Made by a program: the position numbers and the translations under genes. A DNA stretch of 64,000 nucleotides from positions 20,461-84,460 of the forward strand of contig JBDGWG010000003.1 in the NCBI GenBank assembly GCA_039585235.1, in the 5' to 3' direction. This DNA comes from Gemmatimonadota bacterium. GTDB taxonomy: Bacteria; Gemmatimonadota; Gemmatimonadetes; Palauibacterales; Palauibacteraceae. The notes beneath the pieces are model-generated. The model saw only the letters and a list, made by a program, of their open reading frames with translations. It searched no databases and had not been told where the DNA came from. Numbering within the stretch: position 1 is the first letter of the stretch; the number at the start of each line of letters is the position of its first letter. This document shows, in pieces, positions 483 to 23,507 of the stretch.

Positions 483-1673
483 ATGCTGGACGGGCGTCGC
501 ATTTTGCTGGTGGTGTCGGGCGGAATCGCCGCCTACAAGAGCGCGATCCTCGTTCGCCGGCTGCGCCGGTCCGGTGCCCGGGTTGACGTGGTGATGACGG
601 CCTCCGCCGAGAAGATGGTCGGGGCCGCCACGTTTCACGCGCTCAGCGGTCGTCCCGTGTTGACGGACCTGTGGACGGAACCGCTCGCACATGTCGAGCT
701 CGGACGGGAGGCGGACCTGGCGATCGTGGCTCCGGCCACTGCCAATACCCTGGCCAGGATGGCGCATGGCCTCGCGGATGACATGGCGACGGCGACTCTC
801 CTGGCGGCTGCCTGCCCGGTGCTCGCCTGTCCCGCGATGAACCTGCGAATGTGGAGCCACGCCGCGACGCAGTCTAACGTGGAGACGCTCGCGGCGATGG
901 GAGTCCACATCCTGGGGCCCGAGGAAGGCGAGCTGGCCGAGGGCGAGGAAGGTCCGGGCCGCATGTCCGAGCCGGAGATCATCTTCCTGACGGCCGTCCG
1001 CCTTCTGCTGAGCGATTCGTCGTTCGCCGGGCGGAAGGTAGTGGTTACTGCGGGTCCGACTCGCGCGCCGGTGGACCCGGTGCGCTTCGTGGGCAACCGA
1101 TCTTCCGGGCGGATGGGGACGGCCCTCGCGTCTGCGGCCTGGCTTCGCGGAGCTGAGGTCGTCATGATCGCCGGGCCGACCTCCGTCGCCCCCCCCCACG
1201 GGCCGCGGCTGGTCCGAGTGGAGACGAGCGAGGAAATGGGAGAGGCGCTGAAGCGGGAATTAGGCGACGCCTCGGTCCTGGTCATGGCGGCCGCGGTGTC
1301 GGATTTCGCCGTCGCGAACCCATCTCAGAAGAAGATCAAGAGGGGTGACTGCGATACGCTCGAAGTTCGCCTCGAGGTGGGTCCCGATCTCCTGGCGGCG
1401 ACCCGCGAGCTGAGGAAGGCGCGCGGCGTGTTCACCCTCGGGTTCGCACTCGAGACGGACGATCCCGTGGGGAACGGTCGGAAGAAGCTGAAGGACAAGG
1501 GCCTCGATATGATCGCCGTCAACGAAGCTGGCCGAGCCGACCGCGGCGTCGAAGCGGAAACGAACCAGGTGACGCTCATCGACGAAGCGGGAGTGGTCGA
1601 TGAGATGCCTCTGATGTCCAAGTCGGCGGTGGCCGAGAGACTTCTCGATCACCTCGGAAATCGGCTCTCGTGA
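483..1673 (+). CDS. coaBC: Bifunctional phosphopantothenoylcysteine decarboxylase / phosphopantothenate-cysteine ligase
   Basis: N-terminal flavoprotein motif ILLVVSGGIAAYK and a C-terminal CoaB domain; about 397 aa. GTG at 477 is an alternative start. Confidence 0.88.
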   Translation: MLDGRRILLVVSGGIAAYKSAILVRRLRRSGARVDVVMTASAEKMVGAATFHALSGRPVLTDLWTEPLAHVELGREADLAIVAPATANTLARMAHGLADDMATATLLAAACPVLACPAMNLRMWSHAATQSNVETLAAMGVHILGPEEGELAEGEEGPGRMSEPEIIFLTAVRLLLSDSSFAGRKVVVTAGPTRAPVDPVRFVGNRSSGRMGTALASAAWLRGAEVVMIAGPTSVAPPHGPRLVRVETSEEMGEALKRELGDASVLVMAAAVSDFAVANPSQKKIKRGDCDTLEVRLEVGPDLLAATRELRKARGVFTLGFALETDDPVGNGRKKLKDKGLDMIAVNEAGRADRGVEAETNQVTLIDEAGVVDEMPLMSKSAVAERLLDHLGNRLS

Positions 1674-14255: not shown

Positions 14256-15182
14256 ATGGAGGCTCATCTCCACACGTGGGAGCCAGTTAGCGTGCACCGG
14301 CGCATGACGGTTCTCAGCATTGTTCTGCTTCTAGCGTTCTTCGCGATCGGCGCCGGCGTCGTCGTGCGCCTGATACTCGGCGGCCCCCTGGTGTCGCGCG
14401 ATCGCATCGCCGTCCTTCCGGTGTACGGTGTCATCGAGTCCGACGCGGCGTTCATGAAGAACCTCGTGGAGTTTCGTGACGATGAATCCGTGCGGGGATT
14501 CGTGATCGAGATCCGTTCGCCGGGCGGTTTGGCGGGGACGGCTCAGAGCATGTACTCCGAGCTCGCGCGCCTGCGGGACTCGGACGACCGGCCGGTCGTA
14601 GCGTGGATCGGAGAAGTCGGCGCGTCCGGTGGCTACTACGTGGCGCTCGGAGCGGACAGCATCCTGGCTCTTCCCAGTTCCATCACCGGGTCCATCGGCG
14701 TGATCATGGAGTTCCCGAATGCCGAGGAACTGCTGCGAAAGGCCGGCGTGGGCCTGGAGGTTGTCAAGAGCGGGGAGCTGAAGGACATGGGATCACCCGT
14801 CCGCGACATCACGGAGGAGGAGAGGCGGGTGCTGCAAGAGCTCGTAGACGACGTCTACGAGCAGTTCGTGTCCGCGGTTAGCGAGAATCGTGGAATGGAA
14901 AGGGCCAGCGTTCTCGCCCTGTCCGATGGCAGGGTGATGTCAGGCGCCCGCGCGGCTGAGCTTGGTCTCGTGGATCGCACGGCGACTCTGGCTGAGACCC
15001 TGAATATGGTGGGTCGCATGACTGGACTGGGGGATGATCCGCGCACCGTGCGACCGCTGGAGCGAAGACTGGGATTCTGGGATGTGGTTCGTGGGGTCGA
15101 GGAGTCGAGGCTGCACTCGCTTGTGAGGCGCATTCTCGACCGGTCCTTCATGGGTCCGCGACTCCGTTATCAATGGCCGTGA
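14256..15182 (+). CDS. sppA: Signal peptide peptidase SppA (36K type)
   Basis: N-terminal TM helix followed by an S49 peptidase domain (IRSPGGLAGT...GASGGYYVA). The start is probably the ATG at 14304. Confidence 0.8.
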   Translation: MEAHLHTWEPVSVHRRMTVLSIVLLLAFFAIGAGVVVRLILGGPLVSRDRIAVLPVYGVIESDAAFMKNLVEFRDDESVRGFVIEIRSPGGLAGTAQSMYSELARLRDSDDRPVVAWIGEVGASGGYYVALGADSILALPSSITGSIGVIMEFPNAEELLRKAGVGLEVVKSGELKDMGSPVRDITEEERRVLQELVDDVYEQFVSAVSENRGMERASVLALSDGRVMSGARAAELGLVDRTATLAETLNMVGRMTGLGDDPRTVRPLERRLGFWDVVRGVEESRLHSLVRRILDRSFMGPRLRYQWP

Positions 15183-19070: not shown

Positions 19071-19997
19071 GTGGACAAGATAACCGTAGTCGGAGCCGGT
19101 CACGTCGGTGCGACGGCCGCGCAGCGGATCGCCGAGCGAGAGCTGGCGGGCGTCGTCGTGCTGGTCGACATTCTGGAAGGCGTGCCGCAGGGCAAGGCCC
19201 TCGACCAGTGGGAGTCGGCGCCTGTGGAGGGCTTCGACACCATGGTCATGGGAGCCCAGAGCTACGAAGAGACTGCAGGGTCGGGTGTGTACGTCGTCAC
19301 CGCCGGATTGGCTCGGAAGCCAGGCATGAGCCGCGACGACCTGGTGCAGAAGAACACGGCCATCATCCGGAGCGTTTCAGAGGAAATCGCGCGTTACAGC
19401 CCGGACTCCATCATCGTGATGGTCACGAACCCTCTGGACGTAATGGCCTACGTGGCCAAGGCAGTAACAGGCTTCCCGCGCGAGCGAGTCATCGGCATGG
19501 CGGGGATTCTCGATACTGCAAGGTTCCGGAGCTTCATCGCCATGGAGCTGGATGTCAGCGTCGAGGACATTCAGGCGCTGGTCCTCGGTGGCCACGGCGA
19601 CAGCATGGTGCCGATCGTCAGCACGGTCAGCGTGGGCGGCATCCCTCTCACTCAGCTTCTGAGTGCGGATCGGATCGAGGCACTTGTGCAGCGCACGCGC
19701 AAGGGAGGCGGCGAGATCGTGAAGCTGCTGGGAACGGGATCGGCCTACTACGCTCCATCTGCCGGCGCCGTACAGATGGTCGAAGCGATAGCAAGAGACA
19801 AGAAGAGGGTTCTGCCGTGCGCCGCGTGGCTCGAAGGGGAGTACGGTCTTGACGGGCTCTTCCTCGGCGTGCCCTGCAAGCTGGGAGCCGACGGGCTCGA
19901 GGGCGTGATCGAGGTAGAGCTGTCGGGCGCCGAGCGCGAGGCCCTCGGAGCTTCTGCGGAGGCCGTGCGCAGCACGATGGAGCTGGTCCAGCTCTGA
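19071..19997 (+). CDS. mdh: Malate dehydrogenase (LDH-like family)
   Basis: Motif ITVVGAGHVGAT, arginine in the substrate loop LARKPGMSRDDL, and NPLD. Confidence 0.9.
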   Translation: MDKITVVGAGHVGATAAQRIAERELAGVVVLVDILEGVPQGKALDQWESAPVEGFDTMVMGAQSYEETAGSGVYVVTAGLARKPGMSRDDLVQKNTAIIRSVSEEIARYSPDSIIVMVTNPLDVMAYVAKAVTGFPRERVIGMAGILDTARFRSFIAMELDVSVEDIQALVLGGHGDSMVPIVSTVSVGGIPLTQLLSADRIEALVQRTRKGGGEIVKLLGTGSAYYAPSAGAVQMVEAIARDKKRVLPCAAWLEGEYGLDGLFLGVPCKLGADGLEGVIEVELSGAEREALGASAEAVRSTMELVQL

Positions 19998-20038
19998 GCC
20001 GTCTGCCTAGAGGCCCCGCTGGCTGGCTTCCTGACTCG

Positions 20039-20069
20039 CGGGACCGCGCCCCGCGCGGGCGCGGTCCCG
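20039..20069 (+). terminator. GC-rich hairpin after mdh
   Basis: cgggaccgcgcc-ccgcgcg-ggcgcggtcccg perfect 12-bp inverted repeat. No T-tract. Confidence 0.45.
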
Positions 20070-20079
20070 CCCCCGGGCG

Positions 20080-20649
20080 ATGACGTATCTCGAGTTCCTC
20101 GGTCGGTGGTACAACGTCGCATTCCTGTTGGCCGGCGCAGGCGGCCTGGTCTGCGCGTTCTGGGGCAGGCTCCGGGGGCGGGATCTGTTTCGGCCAGCGG
20201 CCACGCTCGTGGTCACGTCGTTCACCGGTCTCACCTGCAACGGCACGATCCACGACCTGGGACTCGGTTCACCGGCTTCCCGGTTTCCCTACGTCCTCGT
20301 CGGGTCTGCGGCTGCGGGATGGTTGGCCGGCCGATGGCTGTGGCGATTCCGGGCACGCCATTTCCGCTCGATCTCGGCGGTGCGGTTCAACCGGCCGGGG
20401 CACGAGGGGGTCGAGGCCCGGCTGGTCACACGCCGCGCCGGGCCGGAATCGGGCTCGGGGAGAGCCCAGTGGCAGGACGGCGACGGAACGCTGCACATCG
20501 TACACGTCCATACGGCGGGTGAGGAGATCGGCTTCGGACGTCGCGTTCGCTTGAGCCGCTTCGACCCGGACGTCGAGTCCTACCTGGTAACGGCCTTGCC
20601 ACGTCGCCGGCGGGCTGATCACTCCTCCAACGCCGCTTCACCCGTGTGA
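20080..20649 (+). CDS. Hypothetical membrane protein, possibly NfeD/YqiJ-like (three TM helices plus a C-terminal OB-like beta domain)
   Basis: Three hydrophobic helices in the N-terminal 100 aa. The C-terminus (GVEARLVTRRAG...DGDGTLHIVHVHTAGEEIGFGRRVRLSRFD) has the alternating pattern of NfeD C-terminal beta-barrels. Family assignment is tentative. Confidence 0.45.
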   Translation: MTYLEFLGRWYNVAFLLAGAGGLVCAFWGRLRGRDLFRPAATLVVTSFTGLTCNGTIHDLGLGSPASRFPYVLVGSAAAGWLAGRWLWRFRARHFRSISAVRFNRPGHEGVEARLVTRRAGPESGSGRAQWQDGDGTLHIVHVHTAGEEIGFGRRVRLSRFDPDVESYLVTALPRRRRADHSSNAASPV

Positions 20650-20740
20650 CCGTCCGGCCACTGGGGTCGTCTTTGGGGCGAACTGCCTCGACTGAAAGCG
20701 AGGACCGGCTCGACCGGTCGGAAAACGGAGGAACCCCCAA

Positions 20741-21796
20741 ATGAAGACACGACTGCGGATTCTGATGCTGGCCGCACTGGTAGCCGGTGGGGCCGTGGGC
20801 TGCGATGAGAGCTCGACCGAGCCCTTATCCGGCGACCCTTTGACCGAGCTCGGTGTCAACGCGGACATGGAGCTCCAGGTCGTCGGAGACGCTGACCTGG
20901 CCGAGGTCCTGATCGACGACATGTCGCTCTCGATGGCGACGCCGATGGACGGACCTCCGTTCGGTTCCGGGCGCGAGTGCTTCCGGGACGCCCGCCAGCT
21001 GCTGCGCGACGGAGACGAGGATGCGGCCCGCACACAGGCACGTGAGTGCCGGATGAACCTGGTTCGTGCCATGCTGGAGCGGCACGGTGAGGCGGCGCTC
21101 GACGAGCTGTTCGGTCGCGTGGAGAGCCTCGTCGAGAGGATAGGGGAGGCCAGCGATGAGTTCGCCCGACTTGCCGACCTCGAGGCGAAATTGCAGGAGC
21201 TGCTCGGGGAAGCGTATGCCCTGCGCGACGGAGGAGACCTCGCGGGGGCGGGGGAGCGTCTGGTGCTGGCTCTCCAGATCGCGGACCGGATGCGGCACCG
21301 GCACCCGGACTTCGACCGTGATCCCGCGGCGGTGGCCCGGCTCGCGATGGCTCGCAGTGGAGAGGCGATTCGCCTCGCCGAGAGACTGATCCTGGAACCG
21401 ACCCTGAAGCAGGAAGTGCTGCTCTTCCGAGCGGCCGAGCTGCGGCGGCGTGCGCAGTTCTCCTTCGAGCACGGCTGGTACCGTCGTGCAGTGGCGCAGG
21501 CACACCGGGCAGAGCAACTGTCCCTGGTGGCCGTCCTGAACGGTGAGCGTCCTACGGTGGAGGATGCCGAGCGACTGCTCGCTCTCGCGGATGAGATGAT
21601 CGCCAGCGCACAGGCAGCCATAGGTGACGCTCCGACGGAGGCGCAGCAGAGGATTCTGGAGCACGCCATCCGTCTGAGAAACCGTGGGGCGGAGGCGATC
21701 AATATGTGGCAGTGGCGGGGTGTGGGACTGCTATGGCGCTCCGCGGTCACGGCGGCTGTACTCATTCCGGACGCTACCCCGACGGATTCCGCCTAG
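20741..21796 (+). CDS. Hypothetical all-alpha-helical lipoprotein (signal peptide plus lipobox AVGC)
   Basis: N-terminus MKTRLRILMLAALVAGGAVGC-DESS. The remainder is Ala/Arg/Glu/Leu-rich and predicted helical. No family recognised. Confidence 0.55.
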   Translation: MKTRLRILMLAALVAGGAVGCDESSTEPLSGDPLTELGVNADMELQVVGDADLAEVLIDDMSLSMATPMDGPPFGSGRECFRDARQLLRDGDEDAARTQARECRMNLVRAMLERHGEAALDELFGRVESLVERIGEASDEFARLADLEAKLQELLGEAYALRDGGDLAGAGERLVLALQIADRMRHRHPDFDRDPAAVARLAMARSGEAIRLAERLILEPTLKQEVLLFRAAELRRRAQFSFEHGWYRRAVAQAHRAEQLSLVAVLNGERPTVEDAERLLALADEMIASAQAAIGDAPTEAQQRILEHAIRLRNRGAEAINMWQWRGVGLLWRSAVTAAVLIPDATPTDSA

Positions 21797-21840
21797 TCGA
21801 GGGCGAAACGACAGCCCGGGAAGTCAGGTCTGGAAGCGAA

Positions 21841-21869
21841 GAGGGGGCGGCGCCACGCGCCGCCCCCTC
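21841..21869. terminator. Bidirectional hairpin between the convergent lipoprotein and HD-GYP genes
   Basis: gagggggcggcgc-cac-gcgccgccccctc perfect 13-bp stem with a 3-nt loop. Confidence 0.55.
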
Positions 21870-21901: not shown

Positions 21902-23062
21902 TCAGGTGATCGGAAGCTCCGAGTCGCGTAAGGCCCGGGTCACCGTCAGGTCCGGGCGGGCGGCCAGATCGAGAGTATCAGGCGCATCGATCCGCTTCCA
22001 ATCCGCGTCCCACACCAGCTCCACCTTGGGGCGGAGGAGGTTCGACGGGTCGGTCGCCACGACGCGTCCGATCTCACCGGAGCTGATTTGCACGTAGCTG
22101 TCCAGCGGGAACGCCGAGATCTCGTTGACCAGGGCTGAGACCACCTGCGGGGCGAAGTATTCCTCCTGCATGCCGACTACGCGCTCCAGGGCCTCCAGGG
22201 CCGTGAAGGGTGATCGGTACGTGCGCGGGTGGGAAAGAGCTTCAAACACGTCCGCCACGCCGAGGATCCTGGCGATCGGGTCAATATCCCCGTCGAGCAT
22301 GCCATAGGGGTAGCCCTGACCACGGGCCCTTTCGTGCTCCTGGAGCACGGCCCGTTTCAGCCACTCGCAGCGTGGTGCACAGCGCTCCAGGATCTCCGCC
22401 CCGTACACCGGATGTTGCCGGAGAGCCTCCCGTTCCCGCTCGGACCAGGCTCCCTGGTTGCGGAGCATCTCCCGTGGCAGTCGCGCCATTCCGATGTCAT
22501 GGAGCAGGCCGGCATGTATGACATCGACGGTGTCCTGGACGTCCGCCACCATTCCGAGGGAGATCTTGCCCCCAAGCACGGCTACGTTCACGCAATGGCT
22601 GGCCAGGTCATAGCTCTCGTGCGGCTGCAGGCTGCGGTTGACTAGTCCGTTGTCACGCAGGAGGTCAGTGTGCATCCGTTCCGCGAGCGGGCGACCTCGG
22701 TCGATATCCGCGTCCTCCCCCTCGCGAATCAACGCGAGCGTCTCCTCCACGTACTCCCGCGCTTCCTCGTACAGGCTGTTCGGGGCAACGGGGCCGGGCG
22801 AGCGGGCGCGAACCTGTCGATCGCCGGACGCGCCTAGCGCCGTGGATGCCCGGCGAGCCAGTTCGGCAAGAAGCGTCGGGTCGACGGTGGTGAGCACGAG
22901 ATCGTCCGCTCTGAGCTCCTCGGAGAGCTGTTTCAGGCTGTCCGCATATCGCGCGGCCCCGGGGAACCGCTCGAGCGCTTCGCGCAACTCCGGCGTCAGC
23001 TCGGGTTCCCCGAGCAGCACGACCAATCTCCGGTCCCCGGGTTCGCCCATTTCGTCGCTCAT
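21902..23062 (-). CDS. HD-GYP domain cyclic-di-GMP phosphodiesterase-type protein with a degenerate N-terminal receiver-like region
   Basis: HD motif LLHDIGM. HPxxG motif in RQHPVYG. GYP motif GQGYPYG. The N-terminal ~110 aa lack the canonical receiver Asp residues. Confidence 0.82.
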   Translation of the reverse strand: MSDEMGEPGDRRLVVLLGEPELTPELREALERFPGAARYADSLKQLSEELRADDLVLTTVDPTLLAELARRASTALGASGDRQVRARSPGPVAPNSLYEEAREYVEETLALIREGEDADIDRGRPLAERMHTDLLRDNGLVNRSLQPHESYDLASHCVNVAVLGGKISLGMVADVQDTVDVIHAGLLHDIGMARLPREMLRNQGAWSEREREALRQHPVYGAEILERCAPRCEWLKRAVLQEHERARGQGYPYGMLDGDIDPIARILGVADVFEALSHPRTYRSPFTALEALERVVGMQEEYFAPQVVSALVNEISAFPLDSYVQISSGEIGRVVATDPSNLLRPKVELVWDADWKRIDAPDTLDLAARPDLTVTRALRDSELPIT

Positions 23063-23181: not shown

Positions 23182-23507
23182 ATGCATAGAAGATTCCTGC
23201 TTCTCGGGGCGATCTCGGCGTTCGTCGGCGTAGCGGCGGGGGCCTTTGGTGCACACGGTCTGGAGTCCCGACTGGCGACCGAGTCGGTTGCGGTCTACGA
23301 GACCGGAGTGCGTTACGAACTGATTCACGCTGTGGCACTCCTGTTCACCGGATTGGCAGTAGACCGGCGTCCGCGAACTCGGCGTCGTGACTCCCGTGGG
23401 CGGAGTATGCTTCCTTCTCGGCTGGGCTCTCGCGATCCTGGCCGGGACGCGCTCTGCCTGCGCCGATCATCGCTACGACGCGACGCGGGGCCGCGGGGGT
23501 AAGTGAA
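23182..23507 (+). pseudogene. DUF423 (YgdD/TMEM256-like) membrane protein gene disrupted by an internal deletion and frameshift
   Basis: The N-terminal 60 aa (GAFGAHGL...YELIHAVALLFTGLAV) match DUF423 TM1-2. The C-terminal motif VTPVGGVCFLLGWALAILAG is in a different frame, starting around 23388. About 35 aa corresponding to TM3 are missing between them. Confidence 0.5.

Follow-up and report, generated by a model that had tools for sequence, protein, structure and literature searches.

A predicted YqiJ/NfeD2-like membrane protein and a predicted helical lipoprotein encoded downstream of mdh in Gemmatimonadota

Gene organization of the locus

A 64,000-nucleotide stretch of DNA from a Gemmatimonadota bacterium (contig JBDGWG010000003.1 of assembly GCA_039585235.1, positions 20,461 to 84,460; analyzed as a whole and referred to here as the window) harbors two consecutive open reading frames (ORFs), named A and B, between the malate dehydrogenase gene mdh and a gene for an HD-GYP-type phosphodiesterase-like protein (Table 1). 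ORF A encodes a predicted inner-membrane protein with a C-terminal oligonucleotide/oligosaccharide-binding (OB) fold, and ORF B a predicted helical lipoprotein. Both are genuine conserved genes. A search of a collection of 5.8 billion proteins returned 54 relatives of A and 53 relatives of B with identities of 32-100%, many clusters of A and of B having longest contigs of identical length, and the AlphaFold2 (AF2) models of the two products are confident, in agreement with a sequence-only reading of this DNA that had singled out two ORFs between mdh and the HD-GYP-type gene.

The order mdh-A-B-<HD-GYP is found in every locus of the clade with enough sequence, where the HD-GYP-type gene, on the strand opposite to A and B, is a member of the conserved block. 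Two subfamilies of A can be distinguished, one linked to B and a sister subfamily linked to a different lipoprotein gene, and mdh adjoins the A-family gene in both.

Table 1. Positions of the genes and features discussed in the text; nucleotide positions are those of the window unless another locus (L number) is named
Feature	Position	Strand	Details
ORF A	20080-20649	+	189 aa
ORF B	20741-21796	+	351 aa
Predicted signal peptide of B	aa 1-20		
Predicted lipidated Cys21 of B (codon)	20801-20803		
Predicted disordered tether of B	to ~aa 34		
mdh	19071-19997	+	malate dehydrogenase, upstream gene; Ldh_1_N/Ldh_1_C, E 1e-37/1e-31
HD-GYP-type (HD_5) phosphodiesterase-like gene	21902-23062	-	convergent with A-B; HD_5, E 2e-25
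Hairpin 1	20038-20070	+	mdh/A gap; 14-bp stem, 5-nt loop, -38.4 kcal/mol, z -3.6, no T-tract
Hairpin 2	21841-21869	.	between convergent B and HD-GYP-type gene; perfect 13-bp GC stem, z -4.85
Shine-Dalgarno sequence of B (GGAGGA)	20727-20732	+	in A-B spacer, 8 nt before ATG of B
Sister A subfamily loci	L030 5001-7227; L034 1111-2759; L035-L057		
Gene adjoining distant B homologues	L026 2333-2827; L027 4252-4746; L028 4270-4761; L029 4235-4732	-	~164 aa
Deepest B-linked branch	L006 562-1377; L025 ~812-1630		short B, ~271 aa
Antisense ORF across gene B	20638-21765	-	375 aa
SppA gene	14256-15182	+	Peptidase_S49, 308 aa
DUF423 gene	23182-23502	+	

Protein A is a predicted, very divergent member of the YqiJ/NfeD2 superfamily

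The AF2 model of A (predicted local distance difference test, pLDDT, 91.5) consists of helices at residues 10-32, 37-60 and 65-94 followed by a six-stranded beta domain at residues 100-172. The helices are modeled with pLDDT >90 and, across 27 sequences, show a hydropathy of 1.2-1.5 and almost no Lys, Arg, Asp or Glu, while the C-terminal beta domain matches NfeD OB domains in fold comparison at a sequence identity of 7-16%. Structure prediction of the 189-residue protein thus confirmed the C-terminal OB fold in the model, and the proposed architecture of three transmembrane (TM) helices plus an NfeD/YqiJ-like OB domain is borne out by this fold match together with remote homology. Signature motifs of the family are WYN (residues 10-12), GLTxNGxIHDLGLGSP (residues 50-65) and GSGRAQWQD (residues 125-133).

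A profile of the A family retrieved only 39 proteins from 1.84 billion representatives. Distant hits of the profile numbered 17 (E 8e-7 to 5e-4), of which 11 score above the Pfam YqiJ_N gathering score and several also carry sub-threshold YqiJ_OB or NfeD matches, and these distant YqiJ-like proteins share with A the N-terminal FLxxWYNL and the OB motif GRAxxxDxxGxLHxV. Alignment of the A family with a set of YqiJ-like intermediates plus Escherichia coli YqiJ by hhalign, a set itself picked by the A profile, gave a probability of 99.55% and an E value of 2.4e-23 over 174 columns. The hidden Markov model check proposed by the sequence-only reading therefore yielded an indirect profile link to YqiJ_N proteins but no direct Pfam match. 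On the basis of these remote similarities, we conclude that A is a very divergent member of the YqiJ/NfeD2 superfamily, a sub-threshold variant of a known family.

Comparison with characterized relatives is consistent with this assignment. E. coli YqiJ and Bacillus subtilis YuaF (NfeD2; PF21001 and PF07290), the partners of the flotillins YqiK and YuaG, have, like A, three hydrophobic N-terminal helices and a C-terminal five- or six-stranded OB barrel. The YqiJ-like relatives carry an acidic, Asp-rich insert from which A is free, located between TM1 and TM2, and A differs from YqiJ and YuaF in an invariant TM2 motif of its own, GLTxNGxIHD. The short NfeD/STOPP proteins (E. coli YbbJ, which accompanies QmcA; Pyrococcus horikoshii PH0471; Corynebacterium glutamicum 3CP0) are more remote, in that A shares 7-16% identity with them, has no match to PF01957 and has no stomatin partner gene nearby.

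The distribution of basic residues in the A family is uneven, with Lys+Arg counts of 3.4 in loop 1 and 5.6 after TM3, as opposed to 0.6 for the N-terminal segment and 0.9 for loop 2 (TM2-TM3). By the positive-inside rule this pattern strongly favors a predicted N-out/C-in topology with the OB domain in the cytoplasm. The predicted cytoplasmic OB domain is a feature that A would share with YqiJ and YuaF. In characterized NfeD proteins the OB domain binds the SPFH partner in the cytoplasm (PMC11222466), and a cytoplasmic orientation has been reported for NfeD with FloA and for YbbJ with QmcA (PMC11222466; PMC13086221, citing Tan et al. 2024).

No SPFH gene accompanies A in the window

NfeD proteins have been described almost entirely as operon partners and stabilizers of SPFH cages (PMC2636767, PMC11222466), and what they do themselves is still regarded as unknown. 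YqiJ/YuaF-type proteins, in particular, are described as operon partners of flotillin-like SPFH2 proteins, and the literature defines YqiJ and YuaF by this pairing (PMC2636767, PMC11237479). A differs from YqiJ and YuaF in having no flotillin/SPFH gene in its operon or within the 64 kb of the window. The Pfam families recorded for genes within ±10 kb of A-B and in the related loci include no Band_7/SPFH family, and searches of the 64-kb window by tblastn and phmmer, with E. coli QmcA and YqiK as the only queries, returned no SPFH gene. The earlier observation that A has no SPFH partner is upheld, as none adjoins it and neither QmcA nor YqiK matches anything in the window. A search of the literature yielded no relevant report on orphan NfeD genes.

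An SppA gene located 5 kb upstream bears a weak precomputed "NfeD1b_N" label. Its candidacy as the protease half of a split long NfeD was ruled out, the protein being an ordinary SppA (TIGR00706, 211 bits).

Protein B belongs to a family of predicted helical lipoproteins

The N-terminus of B, MKTRLRILMLAALVAGGAVG directly before the cysteine to be lipidated, comprises a basic n-region, a hydrophobic h-region and the lipobox AVGC. The lipobox Cys21 is kept in 71 of 73 relatives, the remaining two being truncated. Two further cysteines covary strictly: 49 of the 73 have Cys80 together with Cys103, the other 24 have neither, and no relative has just one of them. Such a pattern would fit a disulfide and hence a periplasmic protein. 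An Asp at position +2 after the lipidated cysteine is present in 52 of the 73 relatives. In E. coli, Asp at +2 is an inner-membrane retention signal, a rule not established for Gemmatimonadota, and for B it provides only a hint of retention in the inner membrane.

AF2 models B as an all-helical protein of 13 helices (pLDDT 83.1, predicted template modeling score 0.81). Its invariant core is ERLxLALQIAxRxR (residues 172-185), in which Glu172 and Arg173 occur in all 73 relatives and Arg183 and Arg185 in 71. Fold comparison with solved structures found no counterpart for the whole 13-helix body, and a profile of the B family matched nothing among PDB sequences. The description of B as a secreted helical lipoprotein without a recognizable domain is supported by the lipobox, the all-helical model and the lack of any convincing domain; what it had missed is a borderline match to Pfam HEPN.

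This match has to be weighed, since B might instead be a true HEPN protein, with tandem HEPN domains and an Rx4H motif at Arg183-His188, acting as an RNase, toxin or nucleotide binder. The Joint Genome Institute annotation names B a "HEPN domain-containing protein", the protein of the window reaches 22.9 bits against the PF05168 cut-off of 22 (model positions 2-65 of 117), and 14 of 27 family members match HEPN at E<0.01 (best 1.3e-7). The matches fall at either of two sites depending on the relative, at approximately residues 74-145 or 223-287, which suggests a tandem repeat, and Arg183, Arg185 and His188 are invariant in the close family. Most matches, however, extend no further than roughly half to two-thirds of the way through the 117-position model, and the same helix hairpin also matches DUF4398 and DUF1771 at similar levels, as expected of a generic hairpin rich in Ala, Arg and Glu; B matches part of one domain only, whether of HEPN or of DUF4398 (PF14346; for example Pseudomonas aeruginosa lipoprotein PA2901, PDB 4fm3). 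The PDB profile search with B returned no HEPN at E<10, and the model is unlike the solved four-helix HEPN folds. In the protein of the window the Rx4H motif lies outside the Pfam-matched segment, and the catalytic-type His of HEPN is not conserved across the B family, His188 being replaced by Gln in 9 of the 73 wider-family relatives. Moreover, B would be periplasmic, away from RNA, according to its lipoprotein signal and the covarying cysteines, no MNT or antitoxin gene is found near B, and no PADLOC defense model matches. We consider a genuine HEPN function very improbable. A defense-system reading was rejected on the same PADLOC result.

B is best described as an uncharacterized, Gemmatimonadota-restricted family of helical lipoproteins. 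Among GTDB species representatives it was found in 17, all labeled Gemmatimonadota save one, which is labeled Akkermansiaceae. The contig of this last genome (L022, CAXMRU010000224.1) bears the full moaA-mdh-A-B-<HD-GYP block at 65-89% identity and has probably been mis-binned.

Some variation was seen within the family. In the deepest B-linked branch (L006 and L025) B is short, lacking approximately the last 80 residues as well as Cys80 and Cys103, and its A partner has GRARVRD where GSGRAQWQD is invariant in the others.

An antisense ORF spans all of gene B, and more long antisense ORFs occur in the region. Because the product of the forward strand has conserved homologues and a confident fold, these antisense ORFs were taken as artefacts of high GC content.

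Conserved hairpins flank A and B, and transcription is likely to come from mdh

The sequence-only reading had described two strong GC-rich hairpins flanking the pair as terminators. Both hairpins are real: none of 200 shuffled sequences folds as well as hairpin 1, and the same holds for hairpin 2. Equivalent hairpins lie at the same places in related loci with differing stem sequences, and RNAalifold detects compensatory changes in 5 of 12 pairs of hairpin 1 and in 6 of 14 pairs of hairpin 2. Hairpin 1 is kept in most related loci (absent in L013, shifted in L019 and L022), and hairpin 2 occurs in relatives as 14 distinct variants of -29 to -40 kcal/mol. Neither hairpin has a T-tract in the window, and a consensus terminator scan called neither.

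The stem of hairpin 2 is lengthened in relatives, its 5' arm being rich in A/G and its 3' arm in T/C, which fits a terminator between convergent genes, and we therefore read hairpin 2 as a putative bidirectional terminator. Only 9 nt separate hairpin 1 from the ATG of A. As this hairpin abuts the start codon and leaves no room for a promoter, transcription of A and B would have to start inside mdh or further upstream, and mdh is the likely source. Hairpin 1 is most likely a terminator or attenuator of mdh that is read through for expression of A and B. The pair had also been called insulated; the hairpins do bracket it, yet the position of hairpin 1 means that A and B are not insulated from mdh. 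Gene A has no Shine-Dalgarno sequence comparable to that of B. The spacer between A and B (91 nt; 70-128 nt in relatives) is unstructured, folding no better than shuffled sequences (z 0.22).

Flanking hairpins and the narrow distribution of both families might suggest an accessory cassette that was gained by horizontal transfer and has terminators at its ends. GC content is nevertheless uniform across the region at 0.64-0.70, with no island signature, and mobile-element genes are absent within ±10 kb of A-B. The chromosomal position of the pair does not differ among the 17 species-level genomes and the metagenome contigs, and A-family genes are found in the same post-mdh slot in the sister clade. 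In view of the uniform GC content and the fixed synteny we reject a cassette or genomic island, to which we give hardly any credence.

Are A and B a functional unit?

All 26 clade loci have A next to B, including those of the deepest branch, in which B is ~40% identical. Conservation is just as high for the entire block moaD-moaE-moaA-mdh-A-B-<HD-GYP-DUF423-<dcd-nuo, and since all of it is syntenic, the adjacency of A and B provides no independent evidence that they are coupled.

Outside the clade the two families part. Homologues of B with 30-35% identity lie at another locus that has no A homologue, where they are always preceded by a divergently transcribed gene for a well-conserved soluble protein of ~164 residues without a Pfam match; Peptidase_Mx and ATP-grasp genes then follow, and pilin-like genes are found nearby. 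Examined for homology to A, the 164-residue protein proved unrelated. Conversely, the sister A subfamily (P0121/P0124 type) sits after mdh or after mdh-sdhA-sdhB. In 24 of its 25 loci the next gene codes for a PA+Peptidase_M28 lipoprotein, and in the remaining one (L043) dcd comes next. The OB motif of the subfamily is GRAQVM, and the M28 protein has a lipoprotein-like N-terminus (LAGC or AVAC). With the M28 lipoprotein replacing B in the sister subfamily, A is a clade-wide gene anchored at the post-mdh site, and the downstream gene varies. The proposed neighborhood conservation is therefore found within the clade, but it is shared by the whole syntenic block and does not extend beyond the clade. 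Likewise, of the proposed insulated pair forming an uncharacterized envelope system, two conserved envelope genes remain, which do not constitute an autonomous module, as each also occurs without the other.

The predicted periplasmic TM2-TM3 loop of A reads HD[LF]xxG[SD]PxxRFP in each of the 26 loci linked to B, and in those linked to M28 it reads HDYWPxxQ. This difference bears on a model in which A and B would be a dedicated trans-envelope pair: B would dock on the periplasmic face of A, formed by an N-terminal amphipathic helix and the HDLGLGSP loop, and the cytoplasmic OB domain would relay or scaffold, with the lipoprotein acting instead of, or besides, an SPFH partner. Consistent with such a pair, the genes are co-oriented, are separated by a hairpin-free spacer of 70-128 nt and stay together down to ~40% identity; the best-conserved segments of A outside the OB domain are its two predicted periplasmic pieces; and the loop switches with the downstream lipoprotein, HDLxLGSP going with B in 26 of 26 loci and HDYWPxxQ with M28 in 24 of 25. 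In the sister subfamily, moreover, the M28 lipoprotein gene remains downstream with either mdh or sdhB on the upstream side, and most B proteins (52/73) carry the Asp that retains lipoproteins in the inner membrane of E. coli. On the other hand, with the whole neighborhood syntenic, adjacency has little independent weight, and the correlation of loop and partner reflects two clades, that is, approximately one evolutionary event. Homologues of B are also found at a different locus that lacks A, and a sister-type A gene (L043) exists without a downstream lipoprotein. On balance we regard a dedicated pair as rather unlikely.

The explanation that we favor, with moderate confidence, treats A and B as distinct envelope proteins, encoded on a Palauibacterales-like Gemmatimonadota chromosome and produced by read-through of the mdh hairpin; they are probably neighbors rather than a proven two-part machine. 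According to this proposal, A and B would be transcribed as the tail of the mdh transcript, hairpin 1 would stop most mdh transcripts, with read-through giving low-level expression of A and B, and hairpin 2 would end transcription from both directions. A would insert N-out/C-in with its OB domain in the cytoplasm, as in QmcA-YbbJ and FloA-NfeD, where the domain would most likely oligomerize and bind a cytoplasmic partner, be it an SPFH protein encoded elsewhere, or none at all. A may thus be a membrane-anchored OB-fold scaffold that acts in the cytoplasm like other NfeD proteins. B would be exported, lipidated at Cys21 and stabilized by a Cys80-Cys103 disulfide, residing in the periplasm on a tether of ~15 residues, and is probably a binding or structural protein that acts through its invariant Glu/Arg-rich surface, not an enzyme. 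Any contact between A and B would be limited to the short periplasmic N-terminus and the TM2-TM3 loop of A. With B predicted in the periplasm and the OB domain of A in the cytoplasm, B could not replace an SPFH partner at the OB domain.

Several points weigh against this explanation. Scanned alone against Pfam and NCBIfam, A gives no NfeD or YqiJ match at E<1 (PF01957, PF07290, PF21001), and hhalign of the A family with the single E. coli YqiJ or YbbJ sequence is not significant, so that the homology of A rests on intermediates selected by the A profile. The absence of an SPFH gene covers 64 kb of genome and two queries, QmcA and YqiK. Topology, lipidation, disulfide and read-through are all predicted. 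Lastly, the adjacency of A and B in every one of the 26 clade loci and the difference between the periplasmic loops HDLGLGSPxxRFP (B-linked) and HDYWPxxQ (M28-linked) count on the side of a coupled pair.

Implications for NfeD-type proteins

The A branch is phylum-restricted, keeps the three TM helices and the OB domain at a fixed locus of the core genome, has no SPFH gene nearby and could therefore serve to test SPFH-independent roles of NfeD proteins. B adds an uncharacterized family of periplasmic lipoproteins with a predicted fold unlike any solved structure. A more far-reaching idea is that an SPFH-independent NfeD/YqiJ branch was re-purposed in Gemmatimonadota as the inner-membrane partner of periplasmic lipoproteins (B, or the PA+M28 aminopeptidase in the sister clade), with the TM2-TM3 loop tuned to each client and the OB domain serving as scaffold or relay. 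We consider this quite unlikely; if it were true, it would place NfeD-type function outside flotillin/stomatin cages. Otherwise A and B are conserved hypothetical genes of an uncultured lineage, whose phenotype and mechanism are out of reach from sequence alone.

A disrupted DUF423 gene in the same block

The DUF423 gene that follows the HD-GYP-type gene looks broken in the window. Intact relatives match residues 1-61 (23182-23364) and then, in the next frame, residues 92-122 (23363-23455), corresponding to approximately 30 absent codons and a frame shift. The gene is either a pseudogene or the product of an assembly error.

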